A stretch of DNA of 64,000 nt from Calditrichaceae bacterium (lineage in GTDB: Bacteria > Calditrichota > Calditrichia > Calditrichales > JBFXGD01), in contig JBFXLE010000016.1 of NCBI GenBank assembly GCA_050173015.1, positions 31,188 to 95,187 on the forward strand, in the 5' to 3' direction. A program made the translations under genes and the position numbers. Positions 49,380 through 55,368 of the stretch are shown piece after piece. The first letter of the stretch is position 1, and the number at the start of each line of letters is the position of its first letter. The notes beneath the pieces were generated by a model that worked only from the letters and a program-made list of their open reading frames with translations, did not search any database and was not told the origin of the DNA.

Positions 49380-49405
49380 TTGCACTTCTATTTTGAAACA
49401 ATCAT

Positions 49406-49478
49406 TCCGGCGTAGCTCAATCGGCAGAGCGGGTGGCTGTTAACCACTAGGTTGTAGGTTCGAGTCCTACCGCCGGAG
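49406..49478 (+). tRNA. tRNA-Asn (GTT)
   Basis: Acceptor stem TCCGGCG/CGCCGGA, D arm GCTC..GAGC, anticodon loop CTGTTAA, T arm GTAGG-TTCGAGT-CCTAC; CCA not encoded. Confidence 0.97.
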
Positions 49479-49481
49479 CAT
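49455..49481 (+). repeat. att site (tRNA-side copy of the 27-bp core)
   Basis: TAGGTTCGAGTCCTACCGCCGGAGCAT, identical to 55088-55114. Confidence 0.95.
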
Positions 49482-49522
49482 AAGGTCTTGTTAAAGTTGA
49501 ACTTAGCAAGACCTTTTTTTTT
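49482..49522 (+). terminator. tRNA terminator supplied by the element
   Basis: AAGGTCTTGTTAA..TTAGCAAGACCTT plus a T tract. Confidence 0.85.
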
Positions 49523-49523
49523 G

Positions 49524-49548
49524 CTGAGAACTAAATGAGAACTAAAAT
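49524..49548 (+). repeat. Putative integrase arm-type site (2 x TGAGAACTAAA)
   Basis: CTGAGAACTAAATGAGAACTAAAAT, identical at 54938-54962. Confidence 0.8.
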
Positions 49549-49700
49549 CTTAAAATATGAACACAAAAAAAAGAGTCCGGAAAATATAATTCCTGAACTC
49601 TTTGTTCTTTTTTATGGACTCAAATAATAGATTAAAATTTTGACCTGATGCCTGGATAGTGTTTTTTTTATACGACCGCTTGTTCGGTTCTGGTTCAATC

Positions 49701-50009
49701 CTATTCTATTACAATTACATCATGTTCTTTGTGCTGAACCATTCGTTCAAGTGCCTTACCTTCTGTCCTGTCCGCGATGAACTCTATCGCCCAGCGTTCA
49801 CCGGCAAGTGCTAATGATATGACCTTTTCTAATATCATTTCTCTGTGTGTCCGCCCGTCTTCTACTTCGTCCAATTTTGAATTGAGAATATCGGCAATGG
49901 CTAAACCCTTCTTAGGCCTTCCTGAACGGTTGCCTTCCTGATTGCCCTTTGCGAATTGCCCCCTGCTATTCCGATTTTTTGCCGTGTTTAGTACGGATAA
50001 ATTATTCAT
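49701..50009 (-). CDS. Terminase small subunit-like / DUF5681-like protein
   Basis: RNSRGQFAKGNQEGNRSGRPKK..L..L..KVI.LALAGE..AIEFIADRTEGKA; GGAG RBS before the ATG at 50009. Confidence 0.6.
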   Translation of the reverse strand: MNNLSVLNTAKNRNSRGQFAKGNQEGNRSGRPKKGLAIADILNSKLDEVEDGRTHREMILEKVISLALAGERWAIEFIADRTEGKALERMVQHKEHDVIVIE

Positions 50010-50247
50010 TGTGTCACTCTCCAATATTTTGTTTTATAAGGATTTTACTTATATCGCTTGACGACGTTTAACGCATATGGTGGTACTCGCTCATACTGTG
50101 ATTAATTAGGCCTGAATGCCTTGTCGCGCTCCGTTTGAGTTCTGTTAGTCCCAGGAATGTAAAATATAGATTCATTTCTTTACTGTACGCTCTACTTTTT
50201 TTAATCCCGATTTTTTAGAATGTTCATAATATTATAATTCTTTTTAG

Positions 50248-50261
50248 TGTACGTTTGTACA
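50248..50261. promoter_or_regulatory. TGTAC-N4-GTACA palindrome (same motif as upstream of dnaE)
   Basis: TGTACGTTTGTACA beside the repeat array, ~240 bp upstream of the TerS-like gene; minus-strand TATAAT at 50231-50236. Confidence 0.5.
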
Positions 50262-50270
50262 TCTTAACAA

Positions 50271-50378
50271 GTGGGACAGGTGGGACAGGTGGGACAGGTG
50301 TCCCAGGTGTCCCAGGTGTCCCAGGTGTCCCAGGTGTCCCAGGTGTCCCAGGTGTCCCAGGTGTTACAGGTGTTACAG
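50271..50378. repeat. 12 x 9-bp tandem array, putative iteron origin
   Basis: 3x GTGGGACAG, 7x GTGTCCCAG, 2x GTGTTACAG; the last unit overlaps the helicase stop codon. Confidence 0.9.
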
Positions 50379-51407
50379 GTTGTTGCGCTTCAATGCTCGG
50401 CCTACTCTTTTGTGATTAGTATTTAATAATTTCGCTATCTCTCTGTTTGAATAGTCCGGATTCTCCCTTTTCATCTCGATAATATCGGTATTAAGTTTTT
50501 CTGAATCTTCTGCTGATAACTGCTTCAAATGCTCATATTCACTACCGTAACCAGTGAACGCAAACTCAATAAAATTCTCGGCCTTTTCTATCTGGCAAAC
50601 CAAAACATTTTCGCTATGATATATAATTTCTGTAGCTCTTGCCTTGATTTGTTTTAAATATCTCATACCGGTGTCGCGCGTACTTTCACCGATAGCGAAC
50701 GCACTATCACAGAAATTAATTAGCATTTTACTTCCCTGTAAATCATTCCTGGTTAGTGGTTTTGATAAATCGCGTTTCGGTGTGTGCGCTAAAGCCAAAA
50801 TTGAAAGCCCGTATTTTGATTTTAACGCGTGAAGCTCTTTCATTAAAGGTAGTGCGGTTCTGGCTTTTTCTGTTTCATTTCGCAGGTAAGTAATATTATC
50901 TATAATGATTATTTTTACATCGTTTTCAATTATAGATTGCTCTAATGAATGTGACAGATACGATTCAAAATCATTAAAACTTTCTGGTATATCTGCATAC
51001 GGATTCATTTCCGCCCTTAAAAAATTATCGCTAAAGATATAATGATTTGAATAATTTTCTGAATAGCGATTTTCAAATTGTTTGTCGCTCAATTCGAAAT
51101 CATAGTATAAAACCTTTTGTGGCTCGGCGTCCATTTTTAATATGGAAATATCTTGCCCCCTGCTGATTGAATCGGCAATCTGAACGGCTAAAATAGATTT
51201 GCCTAAATTGGTATCAGCGAAGAGAATACAAAGTTCATTCTCAAACCAAAATTCACCGAATAAGGTTCTGGGAATCGGTCTTTTCTTTGCCTGCTCTATA
51301 AATCTGTTGGCTGATAAGATTTTAAATAATTCCCGTGGCTCCGGTTCATCATTTACGGTTACATCGAGTTCGCTTAAAATTGGATCATGGTAAATAGTGT
51401 TGTTCAT
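50373..51407 (-). CDS. AAA_25/RecA-type helicase (Rep) with C-terminal HTH
   Basis: Walker A ADTNLGKS, YYDFE, IIIDN Walker B, AHTPK, LKQIKAR; HTH YSNREIAKLLNTNHKRVGRAL. Confidence 0.82.
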   Translation of the reverse strand: MNNTIYHDPILSELDVTVNDEPEPRELFKILSANRFIEQAKKRPIPRTLFGEFWFENELCILFADTNLGKSILAVQIADSISRGQDISILKMDAEPQKVLYYDFELSDKQFENRYSENYSNHYIFSDNFLRAEMNPYADIPESFNDFESYLSHSLEQSIIENDVKIIIIDNITYLRNETEKARTALPLMKELHALKSKYGLSILALAHTPKRDLSKPLTRNDLQGSKMLINFCDSAFAIGESTRDTGMRYLKQIKARATEIIYHSENVLVCQIEKAENFIEFAFTGYGSEYEHLKQLSAEDSEKLNTDIIEMKRENPDYSNREIAKLLNTNHKRVGRALKRNNL

Positions 51408-52428
51408 TTTTAATTCCTTTTAAAGTTTGTACTTCCGCTTCATATTTTGATAGTCCGCCTTGATACTCCATTATCGCGGCGCGTTCTTCAAATATTTCTC
51501 TTTCATATTCTGACAAGTCCTGAATTGCCTGCTGTAATTCGCGTAACCTGCTTATAAGATAATCTGCGATGTCCCATCCTTCCGCCTGGTTACTAAAAAG
51601 ATCAATTACCTTTGCATGAATAGAAATTGATTCTAATGATTCCTTTGTCCTGTCTGCGTTCTCTCGTCCTGGTTTATCATTATCGAATAGAATTGATACG
51701 TTCCTATTCCTTAGCACTTTGGCCTTGTCACGAGTTAGTCCGGTAGTTCCGCCCGTGGCAATCCAAACCTTGTCCGGCATCGCGTATGATCCGACAATGA
51801 CCGTTTTCTCAGATTCTACCATTATGACCGGTGTGTTCCTTGTCCGGTTGTGAAGTTGAAATTCTCCGAATAGACAAGTTTCATAATTCTGCTTCTTTGA
51901 AAACATGAATTTCGGAAATATAGCCTTGTCCCTATGAAGATTTTCCGAGTAAACAAATTCTTTCGCGTTTACAAATCGGCCTTGTATGTCCTGATAAAAA
52001 AACAAGGTTCGGTTATTCCGCCCACGTCCCAGGTTACACCTAATCAAATGACTTTCCGGTATCCCCAACTCCATTAAACCGGCTGCGAACCTGTCGCGCT
52101 GTAAATCTGTCTGGCTCGCGAATACCTGATATTCGCTTATATATTGCCGTGGCTGTATGGACTCTGTTTTATTCGCTCCCTGTCGCGTTCCTGGCTTATC
52201 TGTGGCGCGTTTGGTGGCAGGGGGCATGACATAACCCGTCGCGCTGTGCGATGTCTTTATATGCGCTGTCTGTGGCTCTGTGTGGCTTCCTGGAACGGGT
52301 ATAAATTCACCACATGCAAAGCATTTTCCGTATGGTTGCCGTTCGTGCCCGCGAATAGGTGCGAATCCGCGCCTGGCATTACAGGCAGGGCATCTTGTGC
52401 GGATATTTGAAAAGATTAATTCTGACAT
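51385..52428 (-). CDS. Primase-like protein (Zn finger + DUF6371/Toprim)
   Basis: CPAC..CFAC Zn finger, CLFGE, VESEKT, WIATGG, Toprim FDNDKPG, WDIADY, C-terminal FEERAAIMEY.GGL. Confidence 0.8.
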   Translation of the reverse strand: MSELIFSNIRTRCPACNARRGFAPIRGHERQPYGKCFACGEFIPVPGSHTEPQTAHIKTSHSATGYVMPPATKRATDKPGTRQGANKTESIQPRQYISEYQVFASQTDLQRDRFAAGLMELGIPESHLIRCNLGRGRNNRTLFFYQDIQGRFVNAKEFVYSENLHRDKAIFPKFMFSKKQNYETCLFGEFQLHNRTRNTPVIMVESEKTVIVGSYAMPDKVWIATGGTTGLTRDKAKVLRNRNVSILFDNDKPGRENADRTKESLESISIHAKVIDLFSNQAEGWDIADYLISRLRELQQAIQDLSEYEREIFEERAAIMEYQGGLSKYEAEVQTLKGIKNEQHYLP

Positions 52429-52431
52429 CTT

Positions 52432-52743
52432 TTAAAATCCGTTCACATATTCCGCGGCATCGGCTTCTATTTCATCATTCGATTTATAGCGGCCTGATTT
52501 ATTCATAATATAGTTATTCAAATCTTCAACCTTGAAATAAATACGGCGTCCGCTCGGCTTGTAAAACGGAATGATCTTTTTAGATGATAGCTGGTATAAT
52601 GATTGCTTAGGAATGCCGATATAGTCCGCGGCTTCACTAACGCTCATGAACGGCTTGTCGCGCTTGAGTGTTAAGGTTTTTAATTCCTGAATCTCGGAAA
52701 GAAGTTTCTCTAAGGTGTGTGAAATGTGTGTGAAGTCTGCCAT
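52432..52743 (-). CDS. Excisionase / MerR-like HTH (HTH_17) protein
   Basis: MSVSEAADYIGIPKQSLYQL..IPFYKP..RIYFKVEDL. Confidence 0.88.
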   Translation of the reverse strand: MADFTHISHTLEKLLSEIQELKTLTLKRDKPFMSVSEAADYIGIPKQSLYQLSSKKIIPFYKPSGRRIYFKVEDLNNYIMNKSGRYKSNDEIEADAAEYVNGF

Positions 52744-52853
52744 AATTTTCCCTCATAGTTAATTGTACAACGATTTTATTAATAACTATAAGGGGCATAT
52801 TGAAAACGGTGTGCCATTAGCAATTAGCAAAAATCCGCTAATCGCTTATAATA

Positions 52854-53693
52854 TTAATAGTTGAGTAGTCCCTTCTTTTTGATATTGTTTCTTACAGTGG
52901 TGTGGTGAATACCAAGTATTCTTCCTATCTTTGTATAATTTATTCCGCCGTTATTTTTTCTGTTTTCATCAATTATTCTTCTCCATTCAATCTCGGTCAT
53001 ATTTCTATAGTCTAAGTTCATTTTTTTACTTTTATCTCGTAAGATTAACGCTACGTTGTTTGCTGTCGCCAACTGATTGTTTATCACTTCATTGTCTCTA
53101 CGTAGCTTTTCGTTCTCACGTGTCAATCTTGAAAATTCCGATTCACCATTTTCAACCATCGCATCTATAACATATTTTGTAATACCATCATGTTTTGATT
53201 TCAACCCTGAATATTCATCTTTGATTAAATAATAATCTATGTTTTTTAATTCTTGTTCGGCAACAAATAACGTTGAATCAAATTTATCTGTGGGCTTGCG
53301 ATTCAAGAAACCCTGAAAGATGGCGTGTATAGATAATCTGGTGGTATTAAAACGTTTAATAAGTTTGAGACTGATTGCGTTTGTGCGGATAAAGTTGTCA
53401 TATCGTTTATAATTTTTTAGAAACACAGAAGAAAACAGATATAAATTGACAAGACAGAAATCCCTATATTCCTGAATTTCATCATCTACCAGCTTGTTTT
53501 TATTCAGTGCTTCGTTCGCGTCGTCCGGTAATTTTGCAAGAAAAGATTCGACTAAAAAGATAATATCTTCTCTATACTTTGAAATTTTTTTATTCTTTTT
53601 CTCCAATTCTTCAAATAGTACTCTGACCGCAATCCCTTTACTAACACGTATTAAGTTTAGGATTTCATAAAATTCTTTATTTTCATTATCCAT
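52854..53693 (-). CDS. Hypothetical AT-rich element protein with a coiled coil and C-terminal HTH
   Basis: RLTRENEKLRRDNE coiled coil; INYTKIGRILGIHHTTVRNNI HTH. Confidence 0.7.
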   Translation of the reverse strand: MDNENKEFYEILNLIRVSKGIAVRVLFEELEKKNKKISKYREDIIFLVESFLAKLPDDANEALNKNKLVDDEIQEYRDFCLVNLYLFSSVFLKNYKRYDNFIRTNAISLKLIKRFNTTRLSIHAIFQGFLNRKPTDKFDSTLFVAEQELKNIDYYLIKDEYSGLKSKHDGITKYVIDAMVENGESEFSRLTRENEKLRRDNEVINNQLATANNVALILRDKSKKMNLDYRNMTEIEWRRIIDENRKNNGGINYTKIGRILGIHHTTVRNNIKKKGLLNY

Positions 53694-53728
53694 TTGCTTA
53701 TATTCCTTGTGTGTTCATTTTTAATTCA

Positions 53729-53757
53729 AGCCGGTAAGCGTGTTTGCTTCCGGCTTT
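53729..53757 (-). terminator. Hairpin downstream of the integrase
   Basis: AAGCCGG...CCGGCTT inverted repeat. Confidence 0.55.
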
Positions 53758-54911
53758 TATATTTTTGGTAGTCTGTCTATCGCCTTATCTTTATCGCTGT
53801 CGATTAGTTTTGCATATATCTGCGTTACTCTCACGTCCTTATGCCCGAGTAATTTACTTACAGTATAAATATCTACTCCGGAAGCAAGTGCAAGACAAGC
53901 AAAGGTGTGTCTTCCTGTATGCCAACCTATATTTTTATTTATTCCTGCTTCTGCTGTCCATTTCTTAAGATGTGCTAATGCTTTATTCTCAGCAATCAAA
54001 TTAAAGACCTTGTTCTCAGGCTCAATCGGTTCTACTCTTTGTGTGATTATAATTTCGTTTGCTGTCGCTGAAAGTTTAAGCCTTTGTACTCCGCTCGTTT
54101 TCTTCTGGATGAAATTGATATATTCACCCTGAACTTCTTTCCATATTAATTTTTTAATATCGCTAATCCGTAATCCGGTAAAGCATGAAAATAAAAAGGC
54201 TCGCTTGGTTTGCTCGTTCGCACAAGATGTTTGGTTCAATTTCTGTATCTCTCCAAACGTGAGAAATTCCCGCTGCGTTTCAATTTTGGAAATTGTCACA
54301 AATTGTGCCGGACTTTTGATAAGAATGTTTTTCTTTACCGCGATATTTAAACAGGTTTTCAACTTTCCGAAATACTCGTTCGCTGTATTCGCTGACAAAT
54401 TAGATTTTAGATATTCCGCGAACTTTTCGCAGAAGTCTGTCGTCATATCTAAAAAGGTGATATTCTTATTCCGCGTGAATTTGGTTAAGTGTCTTAATGT
54501 GTGTCTCCAATTTTTTTGGTCTGATTTGGAACGGTCTTTGATCTGATGTTCAAAGAATTTAAGAAAATTCATCTTCTGATTTTCGTGCATTAATCTAAAG
54601 CCAAACTTGTTTTGAAAATATTCGCTGTCGCGTTTCTTCTGGATTTGCTCGGCCTTCGTTAGTGCTTCCTTATCCGCGCGCTTAGTGTTGCGCTTCCCTT
54701 CGTAATATATCCCCAGAAATTCCTTTTCCTGCTTTCCGCCCCGATTCAATTCTAAATAAAAATAATATCGTCCGGAGAATGCTTTTTTAACTCTAAGCCG
54801 AATGGCAGCGTTTTCATTTATTGAAGCAAGGTGTTCTTTCAGGCTCCATTTCTTTGATTTTTTTTGCTCATTTTGCGGTTTTATTGACAAAACGTTATTG
54901 GCTTTGTCCAT
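53757..54911 (-). CDS. int: Tyrosine recombinase (phage integrase family)
   Basis: N-terminal arm-binding-like region, FTGLRISD, QKKT, HTGRHTFA, LLGH, TQIYAK catalytic residues. Confidence 0.96.
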   Translation of the reverse strand: MDKANNVLSIKPQNEQKKSKKWSLKEHLASINENAAIRLRVKKAFSGRYYFYLELNRGGKQEKEFLGIYYEGKRNTKRADKEALTKAEQIQKKRDSEYFQNKFGFRLMHENQKMNFLKFFEHQIKDRSKSDQKNWRHTLRHLTKFTRNKNITFLDMTTDFCEKFAEYLKSNLSANTANEYFGKLKTCLNIAVKKNILIKSPAQFVTISKIETQREFLTFGEIQKLNQTSCANEQTKRAFLFSCFTGLRISDIKKLIWKEVQGEYINFIQKKTSGVQRLKLSATANEIIITQRVEPIEPENKVFNLIAENKALAHLKKWTAEAGINKNIGWHTGRHTFACLALASGVDIYTVSKLLGHKDVRVTQIYAKLIDSDKDKAIDRLPKI

Positions 54912-54937
54912 GTTTCTTAATCCTTTACGCTTATTTT

Positions 54938-54962
54938 CTGAGAACTAAATGAGAACTAAAAT
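54938..54962 (+). repeat. Putative integrase arm-type site
   Basis: Exact copy of 49524-49548. Confidence 0.8.
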
Positions 54963-55087
54963 TGCTAAAAACAACCAAAAACAATTAATATTTAGGACTT
55001 ACGATTTTCGTACTAAATTACTGTTTTTTATTGCTTTTGGTAACTATCAAAAAATAACGAAAAATAACAAAAAAGGCAAGAATATTA

Positions 55088-55114
55088 TAGGTTCGAGTCC
55101 TACCGCCGGAGCAT
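55088..55114 (+). repeat. att site (distal copy; displaced tRNA 3' end)
   Basis: Exact 27-bp copy of 49455-49481. Confidence 0.95.
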
Positions 55115-55115
55115 T

Positions 55116-55156
55116 AAGACCTTGTTAAACTTAAACTTAGCAAGGTCTTTTTTTTT
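55116..55156 (+). terminator. Terminator after the distal att site
   Basis: AAGACCTTGTTAA..TTAGCAAGGTCTT plus a T tract. Confidence 0.85.
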
Positions 55157-55368
55157 GCCCCAGAACTAAACCGGAACATTGTGTTGGTTTTCATTTCACT
55201 TCTTTATTTTAACAAACGCCTTCTGCCCTTAAAGTTGCCGTTTTATTAATTTGTCCCTATATTTTACGAAATATCCGAAAACTCTCCTGTTGATTTTCAT
55301 AGCGTTTTGTATCCACCGGATGGGATTGTAGAAATTATCATGGGGCGGCGAATGACAGGAAACAAGTT

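Follow-up and report, generated by a model that had tools for sequence, protein, structure and literature searches.

A 5.6-kb integrative replicon in a tRNA-Asn gene of a Calditrichaceae bacterium: a candidate minimal phage satellite sharing its backbone with the mobilizable transposon Tn4555

Staphylococcus aureus pathogenicity islands (SaPIs) and related phage-inducible chromosomal islands (PICIs) carry a primase and a replication-initiator helicase with an iteron origin directly after it, and their small terminase subunit (TerS) redirects packaging. Here, we analyze a 5,633-bp island located in the 3' end of a tRNA-Asn gene of a Calditrichaceae bacterium (GenBank assembly GCA_050173015.1). 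The island lies in a 64,000-nt stretch of contig JBFXLE010000016.1 (positions 31,188 to 95,187 of the forward strand), herein referred to as the window, and all coordinates below are those of the window. Together with these, four other described systems are the closest to it. Integrative mobile elements that are encapsidated in virions (VEIMEs) are described as sharing integrases, DNA primase/helicases, AlpA, excisionases, and terminase small subunit homologs; their TerS sequences are closest to the TerS of co-occurring phages, and few of the host genomes contain a prophage (Eppley et al., 2022, PMC9618062). The PICI-like tycheposons are described as elements at tRNA genes that leave partial tRNA copies and have an inward-facing tyrosine recombinase at one end, together with a small primase/helicase module, an excisionase, and terS or the major capsid protein (MCP) gene as the sole phage-related gene, with no further cargo (Hackl et al., 10.1101/2020.12.28.424599). 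[quoted passage not shown] Finally, Tn4555 is described as an integrative mobilizable element (IME) that has a tyrosine integrase along with a recombination directionality factor, an extra excision protein, the targeting gene tnpA, and a MobP relaxase, and that is mobilized by CTn341 (PMC5704250).

In total, six intact open reading frames (ORFs), all on the minus strand, were found between the two attachment (att) repeats of the island. None of the six proteins matched capsid, large terminase (TerL), tail, or relaxase families in Pfam or PHROGs. This agrees with an earlier description made by a model from the letters alone (herein referred to as the original prediction), which had proposed a satellite-like island with this gene content and with integration and replication modules of its own. 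These modules comprise a tyrosine integrase, a Xis-like protein, a helicase, a primase, and an origin-like array, and the island thus appears to be an integrative replicon. With slightly better than even confidence, we regard it as a minimal phage satellite built on this replicon. Integration, mobility, and origin architecture rest on direct sequence comparison.

The tRNA-Asn gene (anticodon gtt, predicted by ARAGORN) at 49406..49479 on the plus strand is the sole tRNA gene within the window. The island is flanked by a radical-SAM gene with this tRNA gene on one side and by a gene for a HAD-type hydrolase on the other. A repeat search found 30 nt at 49452-49481 that are 97% alike with 55085-55114, at a spacing of 5633. 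The sole mismatch is the third base, so that the exact repeat is 27 bp long (49455-49481 and 55088-55114), as the original prediction had it together with an excised circle of 5,633 bp. The copy at 49455..49481, located by the repeat search and sequence reading, is the attL core, and the copy at 55088..55114 is the attR core, i.e., the chromosome's own copy of the tRNA 3' end, now displaced. The last 25 bases of the tRNA gene lie inside the att core; therefore, the element would supply the 3' end of tRNA-Asn after integration.

The empty tRNA-Asn site that had been suggested for a search was found both in a related genome and in contigs of sequencing runs. In a genome of the same genus (G001), the radical-SAM gene, tRNA-Asn, and the HAD-hydrolase gene are contiguous and the island is absent; the two flank matches, with identities of 89% and 82%, have 71 bp in common, corresponding to the stretch that is duplicated. 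Contigs of two runs (X2 and X3), which belong to a study other than that of the probable source run, join 49454 to 55088. Because these contigs match the flanks with 0-1 mismatches and skip 5,633 bp, they appear to represent a near-identical strain without the island. The joint in the aligned run contigs carries 27 ambiguous letters, in agreement with the 27-bp core. These comparisons show the island to be a discrete unit of 5,633 bp that moved recently and is inserted in the 3' end of tRNA-Asn.

Beyond the core, the homology runs on at 86% through a terminator hairpin (49481-49524 versus 55115-55158). According to the terminator scan and the comparison with G001, the hairpin at 49482-49515 and its T-run form an element-borne terminator (49482..49524, plus strand) that replaces the chromosomal one, and the hairpin at 55116-55149 belongs to the original chromosomal tRNA terminator (55116..55158, plus strand), parted from the tRNA by the island. 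The attR-side hairpin matches the empty site of G001 and the attL-side hairpin does not; in the stem of the latter, two base pairs are swapped in a compensatory manner when compared with the chromosomal hairpin. Since the attL-side hairpin is the variant and the attR-side hairpin is the chromosomal one, the island brings its own tRNA 3' end and terminator, with the crossover placed within the 27-bp core.

The integrase (53757..54911, minus strand) is a tyrosine recombinase of the Bacteroidota type, with matches to Phage_int_SAM_5 (1.6e-22), Phage_integrase (PF00589, 8.1e-18), and phrog_1 (1e-48) and a weak Pfam match to Arm-DNA-bind_5. This protein is homologous to the integrases of two IMG/VR contigs, L187 and L188 (~1e-62). 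Two identical arrays, each with two 11-bp copies of TGAGAACTAAA, were found by Tandem Repeats Finder (TRF) at 49525..49546 (P') and 54939..54960 (P), and a 54-nt stretch around the P arm repeat is 78% alike with 49517-49570. These arrays are good candidates for arm-type integrase sites and would flank the core in the excised circle. The chromosomal stretch 55149-55177, just right of attR, resembles the arm-repeat region as well (76% over 29 nt), and G001 has a similar stretch at its empty site; the resemblance may be fortuitous or a relic of earlier integrations. The candidate recombination directionality factor is a Xis/AlpA-like HTH_17 protein encoded at 52432..52743 on the minus strand (HTH_17, PF12728, 4.5e-12; Tn916-Xis, 1.6e-3; phrog_66, 1e-8).

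The replication module includes two genes that overlap by 23 nt. The primase gene (51385..52428, minus strand) encodes a zinc ribbon, DUF6371, and Toprim (DUF6371, 2.7e-24; Toprim_3, 2.6e-6; phrog_47 DNA primase, 1.7e-11). The gene for the replicative helicase/initiator (50373..51407, minus strand) encodes a DnaB-like AAA_25 core (AAA_25, 2.3e-18; phrog_19, 3.4e-16) and a C-terminal helix-turn-helix (HTH) domain with a weak match. The two functions are encoded separately, in line with the split noted originally, versus a single fused protein (DnaG zinc ribbon, Toprim, and AAA_25) in the metagenome contigs L020 and L021.

An origin-like array of 12 units with a 9-bp period is located at 50267..50384. 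TRF reported a period of 9 with 8.8 copies and 97% matches at 50295-50373, as well as 3.8 inverted copies at 50267-50300. Read on the coding strand, the array consists of two units of CCTGTAACA, seven units of CCTGGGACA, and three inverted units of CCTGTCCCA, after which AT-rich DNA begins; the helicase stop codon TAA lies inside the first unit. The AT-rich DNA that separates the array from the DUF5681 gene (50025..50266), delimited by sequence reading, is a candidate unwinding region and a candidate promoter or pac region.

The same design was found after the helicase gene in all 12 of the closer helicase relatives described below: the gap holds an array with a 9-bp period, arranged in two convergent blocks and starting in or at the helicase stop codon. 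Across the 13 elements, the core of the array changes together with the final 20 residues of the helicase, i.e., with its C-terminal HTH. Thus, all seven helicases ending in '...ELGISH..RIL...' pair with a TGTAACA/TGTTACA core, all four ending in '...ISLGAVNKYLK' pair with GTTCAC/GTGAAC, L192 has an HTH/array pair of its own, and the island helicase, ending in '...NHKRVGRALKRNNL', pairs with TGGGACA/TGTCCCA. Since the units adjoin the helicase gene, AT-rich DNA is adjacent, and the core covaries with the helicase HTH, the array is taken to be the putative origin and the C-terminal HTH its reader. At the level of sequence, the island shares with iteron origins the repeated units beside the initiator gene, the AT-rich region, and the covariation with the initiator. 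The iteron array of the original prediction is accordingly real as a tandem array and origin-like across the 13 elements, and its description needs amending in that the 9-bp units form two convergent blocks, not classical long iterons.

The helicase was found in only 1 of 86 genomes of the phylum (E<=1e-10), which is the genome carrying the island. The catalytic part of the primase was found in two genomes of the same order (39% and 45% identity), adjoining AAA_25 helicases and without DUF5681. A search of IMG/VR with the helicase and then with a four-sequence alignment yielded 15 loci, 12 of which have helicases 56-63% identical to that of the island. Most of the 12 contigs are 5.9-9.7 kb long, and half of them (L185, L186, L187, L193, L194, and L195) have exact terminal repeats of 96-127 bp. 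An exact terminal repeat is an assembler's mark of a circle, and these six contigs are therefore read as circles of ~6-10 kb.

Clustering of the proteins revealed a common backbone among the 12 relatives: the helicase is present in all of them, the Xis-like protein and the integrase in 11 each, and the DUF6371-type primase in 10, the two remaining relatives having a BT4734_N/PriCT_2 primase in its place. Genes in the relatives follow the order int, variable gene, xis, helicase, primase, and small cargo; the island differs in having the primase ahead of the helicase. Among the 94 proteins of ten small relatives, Pfam domains include HTH_17 (13), AAA_25 (10), DUF6371 (9), integrase domains (8-9), and one each of Peptidase_S78, Terminase_2, and Terminase_4; no relaxase was found among the families listed (25 of 35). 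The Terminase_2 protein (122 aa, 2.4e-14) belongs to L191. The Terminase_4 protein (145 aa, 6.3e-14) belongs to L195, together with the Peptidase_S78 prohead protease (4.9e-31), and L195 appears to be a fuller PICI-like version of the family. With only curated matches above the cut-off counted, a packaging gene was found in 3 of the 13 elements (the island, L191, and L195).

Additional observations were made on these and other IMG/VR contigs. L195 is a circular contig of 9724 bp with a 123-bp terminal repeat, a BT4734_N/PriCT_2 primase, and the same helicase and iteron design. L192 (5929 bp) has a weak match to DUF5681 followed by an ORF with a weak match to Terminase_6N, and its DUF6371 primase is split into three ORFs. 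Both L192 and L200 (4778 bp) contain helicase and/or primase genes, then a DUF5681-like gene and a short TerL-like ORF; they could be satellites with their own terminase ATPase or phage fragments. Helicases 46-47% identical to that of the island are located inside very large viral contigs (L197-L199, 101-295 kb), and the helicase family thus seems to occur in large phage-like genomes too. Four relatives (L185, L191, L193, and L194) share a basic protein of 83-197 aa, herein referred to as the A5 family. A phage relative of this family (120 aa, in L203) matches the N-terminal half of PF18932 (1.2e-7) and is encoded one ORF upstream of a Terminase_6C protein; this match is the sole tie found between the A5 family and DUF5681. 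The A5 family was not counted as a terminase because hhalign against the DUF5681 alignment shows no relation and because L191 has a canonical TerS too; nor did hhalign show a relation of the 89-aa protein of L185 to DUF5681. No T-loop motif that would mark a tRNA-like att core was found in L185-L196, L017, L020, L021, and L059, and a tRNA piece (40 nt) was found in L059 only.

The gene at 49701..50009 (minus strand) encodes a DUF5681 protein of 102 aa, counted from the ATG at 50009 (the ORF list starts at the TTG at 50024), and is the candidate small terminase gene of the island (PF18932, 2.9e-8, above the cut-off). Among 60 candidates from a protein collection, 49 were relatives at E<=1e-3, all of them unnamed or labelled hypothetical. 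With a profile built from 23 sequences, the confirmed stretches numbered 92 in metagenome contigs and 238 in IMG/VR. Gene neighborhoods were counted in 160 loci, namely 80 of the 92 metagenome stretches and 80 of the 238 IMG/VR stretches, for which ORFs were called. A downstream ORF is present in 126 of the 160 loci, and 101 of these ORFs are on the same strand and at least 350 aa long; they include matches to Terminase_6N (89), Terminase_6C (70), Terminase_3 (50), and Phage_integrase (3). With a hidden Markov model (HMM) built from the terminases found downstream of DUF5681, TerL followed immediately in 34 of 61 metagenome loci (another gene in 19, the contig end in 7, and TerL second-next in 1) and in 71 of 74 IMG/VR loci, or in 105 of 135 loci of both sets together. 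Upstream neighbors of at least 200 aa (n=70) include N6_N4_Mtase (37), ParB_N (35), and Mom (11), and no TerS family was found among the 23 families represented in them. Since TerL is usually the next gene and no TerS family is located upstream, the DUF5681 family appears to fill the small-terminase position in phage contigs. This holds for the family and not for the island copy, the closest relatives of which are not beside TerL.

DUF5681 genes were also found in settings that resemble the island. In the metagenome contigs L020, L021, and L059, the primase-helicase, DUF5681, and integrase genes have the circular order of the island, and in L017, DUF5681 is followed by an integrase gene. Directly after the integrase gene of L059, a 40-nt piece (L059:3695-3734) matches at 95% the 5' part of a tRNA of the genome that carries the island. 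In a quick maximum-likelihood tree of DUF5681, where the branch of the island itself is long, copies from satellite contexts fall in at least three places among the TerL-linked copies, and the starred branches force at least three changes. A well-supported subgroup of metagenome copies not beside TerL (L055, L060, L068, L074, L075, L076, and L078) has the gene between an ORF of 548-600 aa and an ORF of ~250 aa. A scan of a genome collection with the DUF5681 profile found only 4 loci, none of them in this lineage. In the order, DUF5681 was found in 2 of 39 genomes, the second (G013) having a partial match on a phage-like 8-kb contig. On this contig (G013:C169, also L212, 8095 bp), the ORF with the DUF5681 N-terminal motif is accompanied ~5 kb downstream, on the same strand, by a TerL-like ORF that is cut by the contig end; the contig is a possible lead to phages of this lineage. 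A DUF5681 protein is listed among those identified in a structural proteome analysis of a Salmonella phage.

Two AlphaFold models of the DUF5681 protein, with mean predicted local distance difference test (pLDDT) values of 69.5 (23 sequences) and 77.8 (101 sequences), consist of a disordered basic N-terminus with an invariant G-R-P motif and three helices (residues 38-82 in the second model). In a comparison with 48,161 chains by VIA-align, the NV1 small terminase 7joq_I ranked first for both models, with Z far below the trusted level (Z 3.4, root-mean-square deviation (rmsd) 8.0, 51 residues aligned for the first model; Z 3.2, rmsd 3.5, 56 residues aligned for the second). A four-copy model had a self-association score of 0.56 (runs of 0.54, 0.62, and 0.56) versus 0.00 for the best of three controls, with a contact agreement of at least 53%, a partner pLDDT of at least 62, and contact via the helical core. 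In the calibration, the set-up of which differs from the run used here (four copies, own alignment), solved homomers attained the mark in 20 of 30 cases and single chains in 1 of 23. As a prediction, the model supports self-association of the DUF5681 protein through its helical core, and it is not a ring.

Taken as a phage satellite, the island would work as follows; the terminase role, the helper, and encapsidation are steps that we infer. The integrase and the HTH_17 Xis-like protein would excise a circle, the integrase probably using the two duplicated arm sites that flank the core in attP. The C-terminal HTH of the AAA_25 helicase would bind the convergent 9-bp TGGGACA/TGTCCCA array and open the adjacent AT-rich DNA, and the DUF6371/Toprim primase would prime replication by the host polymerase. 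The DUF5681 protein would serve as the small terminase, i.e., oligomerize, bind a site in the island, and recruit TerL from a helper phage of the DUF5681-TerL type that infects the cell. The 5.6-kb unit could then be packaged as multimers into helper capsids, as in VEIMEs and PICMIs. A further island protein, ORF279, would be a likely regulator holding the element silent until a helper arrives. This reading is preferred because DUF5681 is in the TerS position in phages, two relatives that share the backbone have curated TerS genes, and no relaxase is present.

A number of observations weigh against it. The DUF5681 protein of the island has matches only to PF18932 and to two PHROGs of unknown function and none to a curated TerS family (Terminase_2, Terminase_4, etc.). 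Foldseek comparison of both models with PDB, one of the checks suggested originally, found nothing at E<=0.001. In the VIA-align ranking, 7joq_I, the second row 2ao9_A (Z 3.1), and the SPP1-like TerS 3zqp_A (rank 13, Z 2.2) all share their level with unrelated rows. The best rows in BFVD are uncharacterized or DUF5681 phage proteins (E 3e-3 to 3e-2), with named terminases only at E>5, and a sequence-profile search of PDB with DUF5681 gave chance-level rows only. The TerS-like gene of the original prediction is thus upheld for the position of the family in phage contigs and not for a curated match, and a small terminase is its best structural match only at Z 3.2-3.4. In a tblastn search at E<=0.01, none of 50,697 deposited phage genomes contained a relative of the island DUF5681 protein. 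Among the relatives, L191 bears both an A5-type small protein and a canonical TerS, and small basic proteins at the A5 position probably need not all be terminases. The presence of the relatives in IMG/VR is a computational label and no proof of encapsidation. In the probable source run, the island contig has a depth of 37.9-39.3, similar to the flanks (left, 40.8; right, 25-33), and no circle or concatemer junction was listed in the contigs of four runs, which drop rare forms; neither the attP junction nor the raised coverage envisaged originally was found. The host genome, which is 97.5% complete in 54 contigs, contains one DUF5681 gene and one DUF6371 gene, and no Terminase_6N, no TerL (own HMM), no HK97-type capsid, and no second DUF5681 that would point to a helper phage were found in it; binned genomes often miss mobile elements. 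Counting for the satellite reading, on the other hand, the PF03432 relaxase and the PF02534 coupling protein were not found there either; the genome yielded no resident helper phage and no resident conjugative element. Finally, the nearest characterized relative of the island backbone appears to be a conjugatively mobilized transposon.

This last point comes from a tblastn search of plasmid records, in which the helicase matched the ATPase of 8 Bacteroidales records with 43-44% identity over 94% of the protein. Among phage records, it matched two human-faecal 'Bacteriophage sp.' scaffolds, the 6.3-kb one being a piece of the same Tn4555-type transposon. The PLSDB record CP103138.1, a circle of 10,057 bp, is annotated with an excisionase, an AAA ATPase, DUF6371, a mobilization protein, cfxA, an HTH protein, an integrase, and a transposase, which is the gene set of Tn4555. 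In phmmer comparisons with this record, four island proteins had homologs: the helicase (1.9e-75), the integrase (3.3e-38), the primase (8.9e-15), and the Xis-like protein (3.8e-8, with the annotated excisionase). The HTH (targeting) protein of CP103138.1 matches proteins of 7 relatives and nothing in the island. The eight PLSDB records (CP103138.1, CP103131.1, and six others) are 10-15 kb circles and larger plasmids of gut Bacteroidales with a Tn4555-type gene set including cfxA; five of them are typed as 'non-mobilizable', among them CP103138.1 despite its annotated mobilization protein. The small circles look like excised transposon circles filed as plasmids. These homologies to plasmid ATPases and to a record with a mobilization protein, and the mobilization of the MobP-bearing Tn4555 by CTn341 (PMC5704250), favor the view that the island is an IME of the Tn4555 lineage that lost its relaxase or never had one and moves, if at all, by conjugative mobilization in trans, its helicase and primase serving excision or transfer and its DUF5681 protein being a DNA-binding accessory protein. 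We consider this unlikely. The Tn4555 Mob had 0 matches at E<=1e-3 (phmmer), whether in six-frame ORFs of the island (49400-55200), in the 12 relatives from IMG/VR, or in any of the other loci; a relaxase in every homologous element, named at the outset as the sign of a decayed mobilizable element, is therefore not what the family shows. The absence of a relaxase from the families listed for the ten small relatives and of PF03432 and PF02534 from the host genome points the same way. Furthermore, the 9-bp array occurs in the island and in the 12 closer relatives, and none was found by TRF in CP103138.1, where 3 nt separate the ATPase and DUF6371 genes and no array follows the ATPase gene. The place of mob is occupied by DUF5681, Terminase_2, or Terminase_4.

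It is similarly improbable, though by a shade less so, that the island is a self-replicating integrative plasmid-like element, comparable to the 'cryptic' tycheposons, that is independent of phages and spreads by vesicles, transformation, or vertical descent. Its integration and replication modules are complete, circular relatives of 6-10 kb exist, no helper phage was found in the host genome, and tycheposon-type elements are reported to be enriched in vesicles (10.1101/2020.12.28.424599), all of which speak for it. Against it, the one gene outside the backbone is of a family that is linked to TerL in phages, and sister elements carry curated TerS and a prohead protease, which have no obvious use outside phage piracy. 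The contigs L192 and L200, in which helicase/primase genes, a DUF5681-like gene, and a TerL-like ORF are found together, bring up a further possibility, since phage-like genomes with this replication module may exist: the island could be a prophage stump that kept the part from the integrase through terS and had terL and the rest deleted. This is very improbable, as the six ORFs, both att sites, and the arm repeats are all intact, and near-identical strains either have the entire unit or lack it. Because six relatives were assembled as circles of 6-10 kb with the same small gene set, small size is probably the native state of the family.

A broader reading, which we hold tentatively and at a little under even confidence, is that one integrase-Xis-helicase-primase backbone switches its transfer route by swapping a single small module, Mob/oriT giving Tn4555 and a small terminase giving a phage satellite. 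In the same tentative vein, this exchange might span Bacteroidota-type hosts and the small sister phylum studied here, the terminase being DUF5681, Terminase_2, or Terminase_4 with or without a prohead protease. Perhaps, though we would not quite wager on it, the ATPase of the satellite branch became, or stayed, a replicative helicase that binds the origin, with a 9-bp iteron code that evolves fast. It is conceivable to about the same extent that DUF5681 is a widespread, unrecognized small-terminase family of aquatic phages.

If the satellite reading is true, DUF5681, a family common in aquatic viral contigs (238 confirmed IMG/VR stretches), would gain a function as a small terminase, and minimal satellites would reach a poorly studied phylum and a non-marine habitat. 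The 13 elements would form a clean comparative system in which the origin repeats and the recognition helix of the initiator change together. Phage satellites and conjugatively mobilized transposons, which are usually treated apart, would share a backbone and differ only in the transfer module. This would bear on the kinship of resistance-carrying Bacteroides transposons and phage satellites, as well as on the reading of small 'viral' contigs in viromes.

The remaining island gene (52854..53693, minus strand) encodes the orphan 279-aa protein ORF279, a candidate regulator for which only weak C-terminal HTH matches were found in Pfam and PHROGs. Its ESM Atlas score is at most 0.84, and its own model has a pLDDT of 0.52. 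In the relatives, this position holds unrelated genes, for which hhalign shows no homology to ORF279. The C-terminal ~45 residues of the primase (residues ~290-345, 51385-51560) match ORFs of 65-118 aa that stand alone in 15 related genomes, and match a second place in the genome carrying the island, at C14:80951-81073 (E 1e-4 to 7e-7); this tail looks like a small mobile domain. A promoter scan of the island was uninformative (15 sites versus 17.1 expected), and no RNA dataset covering the island was listed.

Small TerS-bearing satellites of this design have already been described as VEIMEs, PICI-like tycheposons, and PICMIs, and the suggestion that the island represents a new family is thus not sustained. 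Among the papers searched, no satellite with an integrase was reported for Calditrichota-type hosts, no Bacteroid phage satellite with a primase and a terminase small subunit was found, and nothing relevant was found on DUF6371; in one paper on 'phage satellites' and Bacteroidota, nothing of this family was found.

Like the VEIMEs, the island is a small integrative element, and the interleaved DUF5681 tree matches the terminase pattern described for them (PMC9618062). VEIMEs are defined, in their description, by recovery as concatemers from virions, whereas the island is known from sequence alone; they are marine, and the host of the island is non-marine (landfill-metagenome label) and belongs to a small phylum. 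The architecture of the island matches that of the PICI-like tycheposons as published, with a terS identity that is putative in the island. These elements are described in Prochlorococcus and some Proteobacteria and have a distinct integrase clade, in contrast to the Bacteroidota SAM_5/Arm-DNA-bind_5 type of the island integrase.

The PICMIs resemble the island in size (~6 kb), in the number of genes (six), and in the variable gene beside int, followed by the AlpA/HTH_17 protein and then the primase. Under the PICMI model of SatelliteFinder, the integrase (PF00589, PF00239, or PF07508 being allowed) is represented in the island by PF00589 (8.1e-18), and AlpA (PF05930 or PF12728) by PF12728 (HTH_17, 4.5e-12). 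The primase families of the model, DUF3987 (PF13148) and DUF5906 (PF19263), had no match at E<=0.1 among the six island proteins, and PICMIs sit downstream of fis, whereas the island is located between the radical-SAM gene with tRNA-Asn and the HAD-type hydrolase gene. The island thus departs from the model in 2 of 4 requirements (primase family and fis locus). In addition, none of the six genes of PICMI115 is named TerS in the published description (PMC10803314), and the island possesses a helicase that is encoded separately, along with an iteron array and DUF5681.

In comparison with SaPIs and other PICIs, the island has other protein families, 9-bp units in two convergent blocks, no capsid-size genes, and about one third of the SaPI size. 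With Tn4555, it shares a homologous integrase, Xis, AAA_25 ATPase, and DUF6371 protein, a similar gene order, and a circular intermediate, which is predicted for the island. Tn4555 has a MobP relaxase with oriT, a targeting gene, cfxA, a transposase, and low site specificity; in contrast, the island has no MobP, targeting, cfxA, or transposase gene, is tRNA-specific, and contains the 9-bp origin-like array. The slot of mob in Tn4555 corresponds to DUF5681 in the island and to Terminase_2 or Terminase_4 in the relatives. No paper on the features that set the island apart was found in the literature search, and the supplementary tables of the VEIME and tycheposon studies, which lie outside that search, may already contain such elements. 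New here are this backbone with its 9-bp iteron code, DUF5681 as a putative terminase, the lineage and habitat of the host, and the Tn4555 homology.

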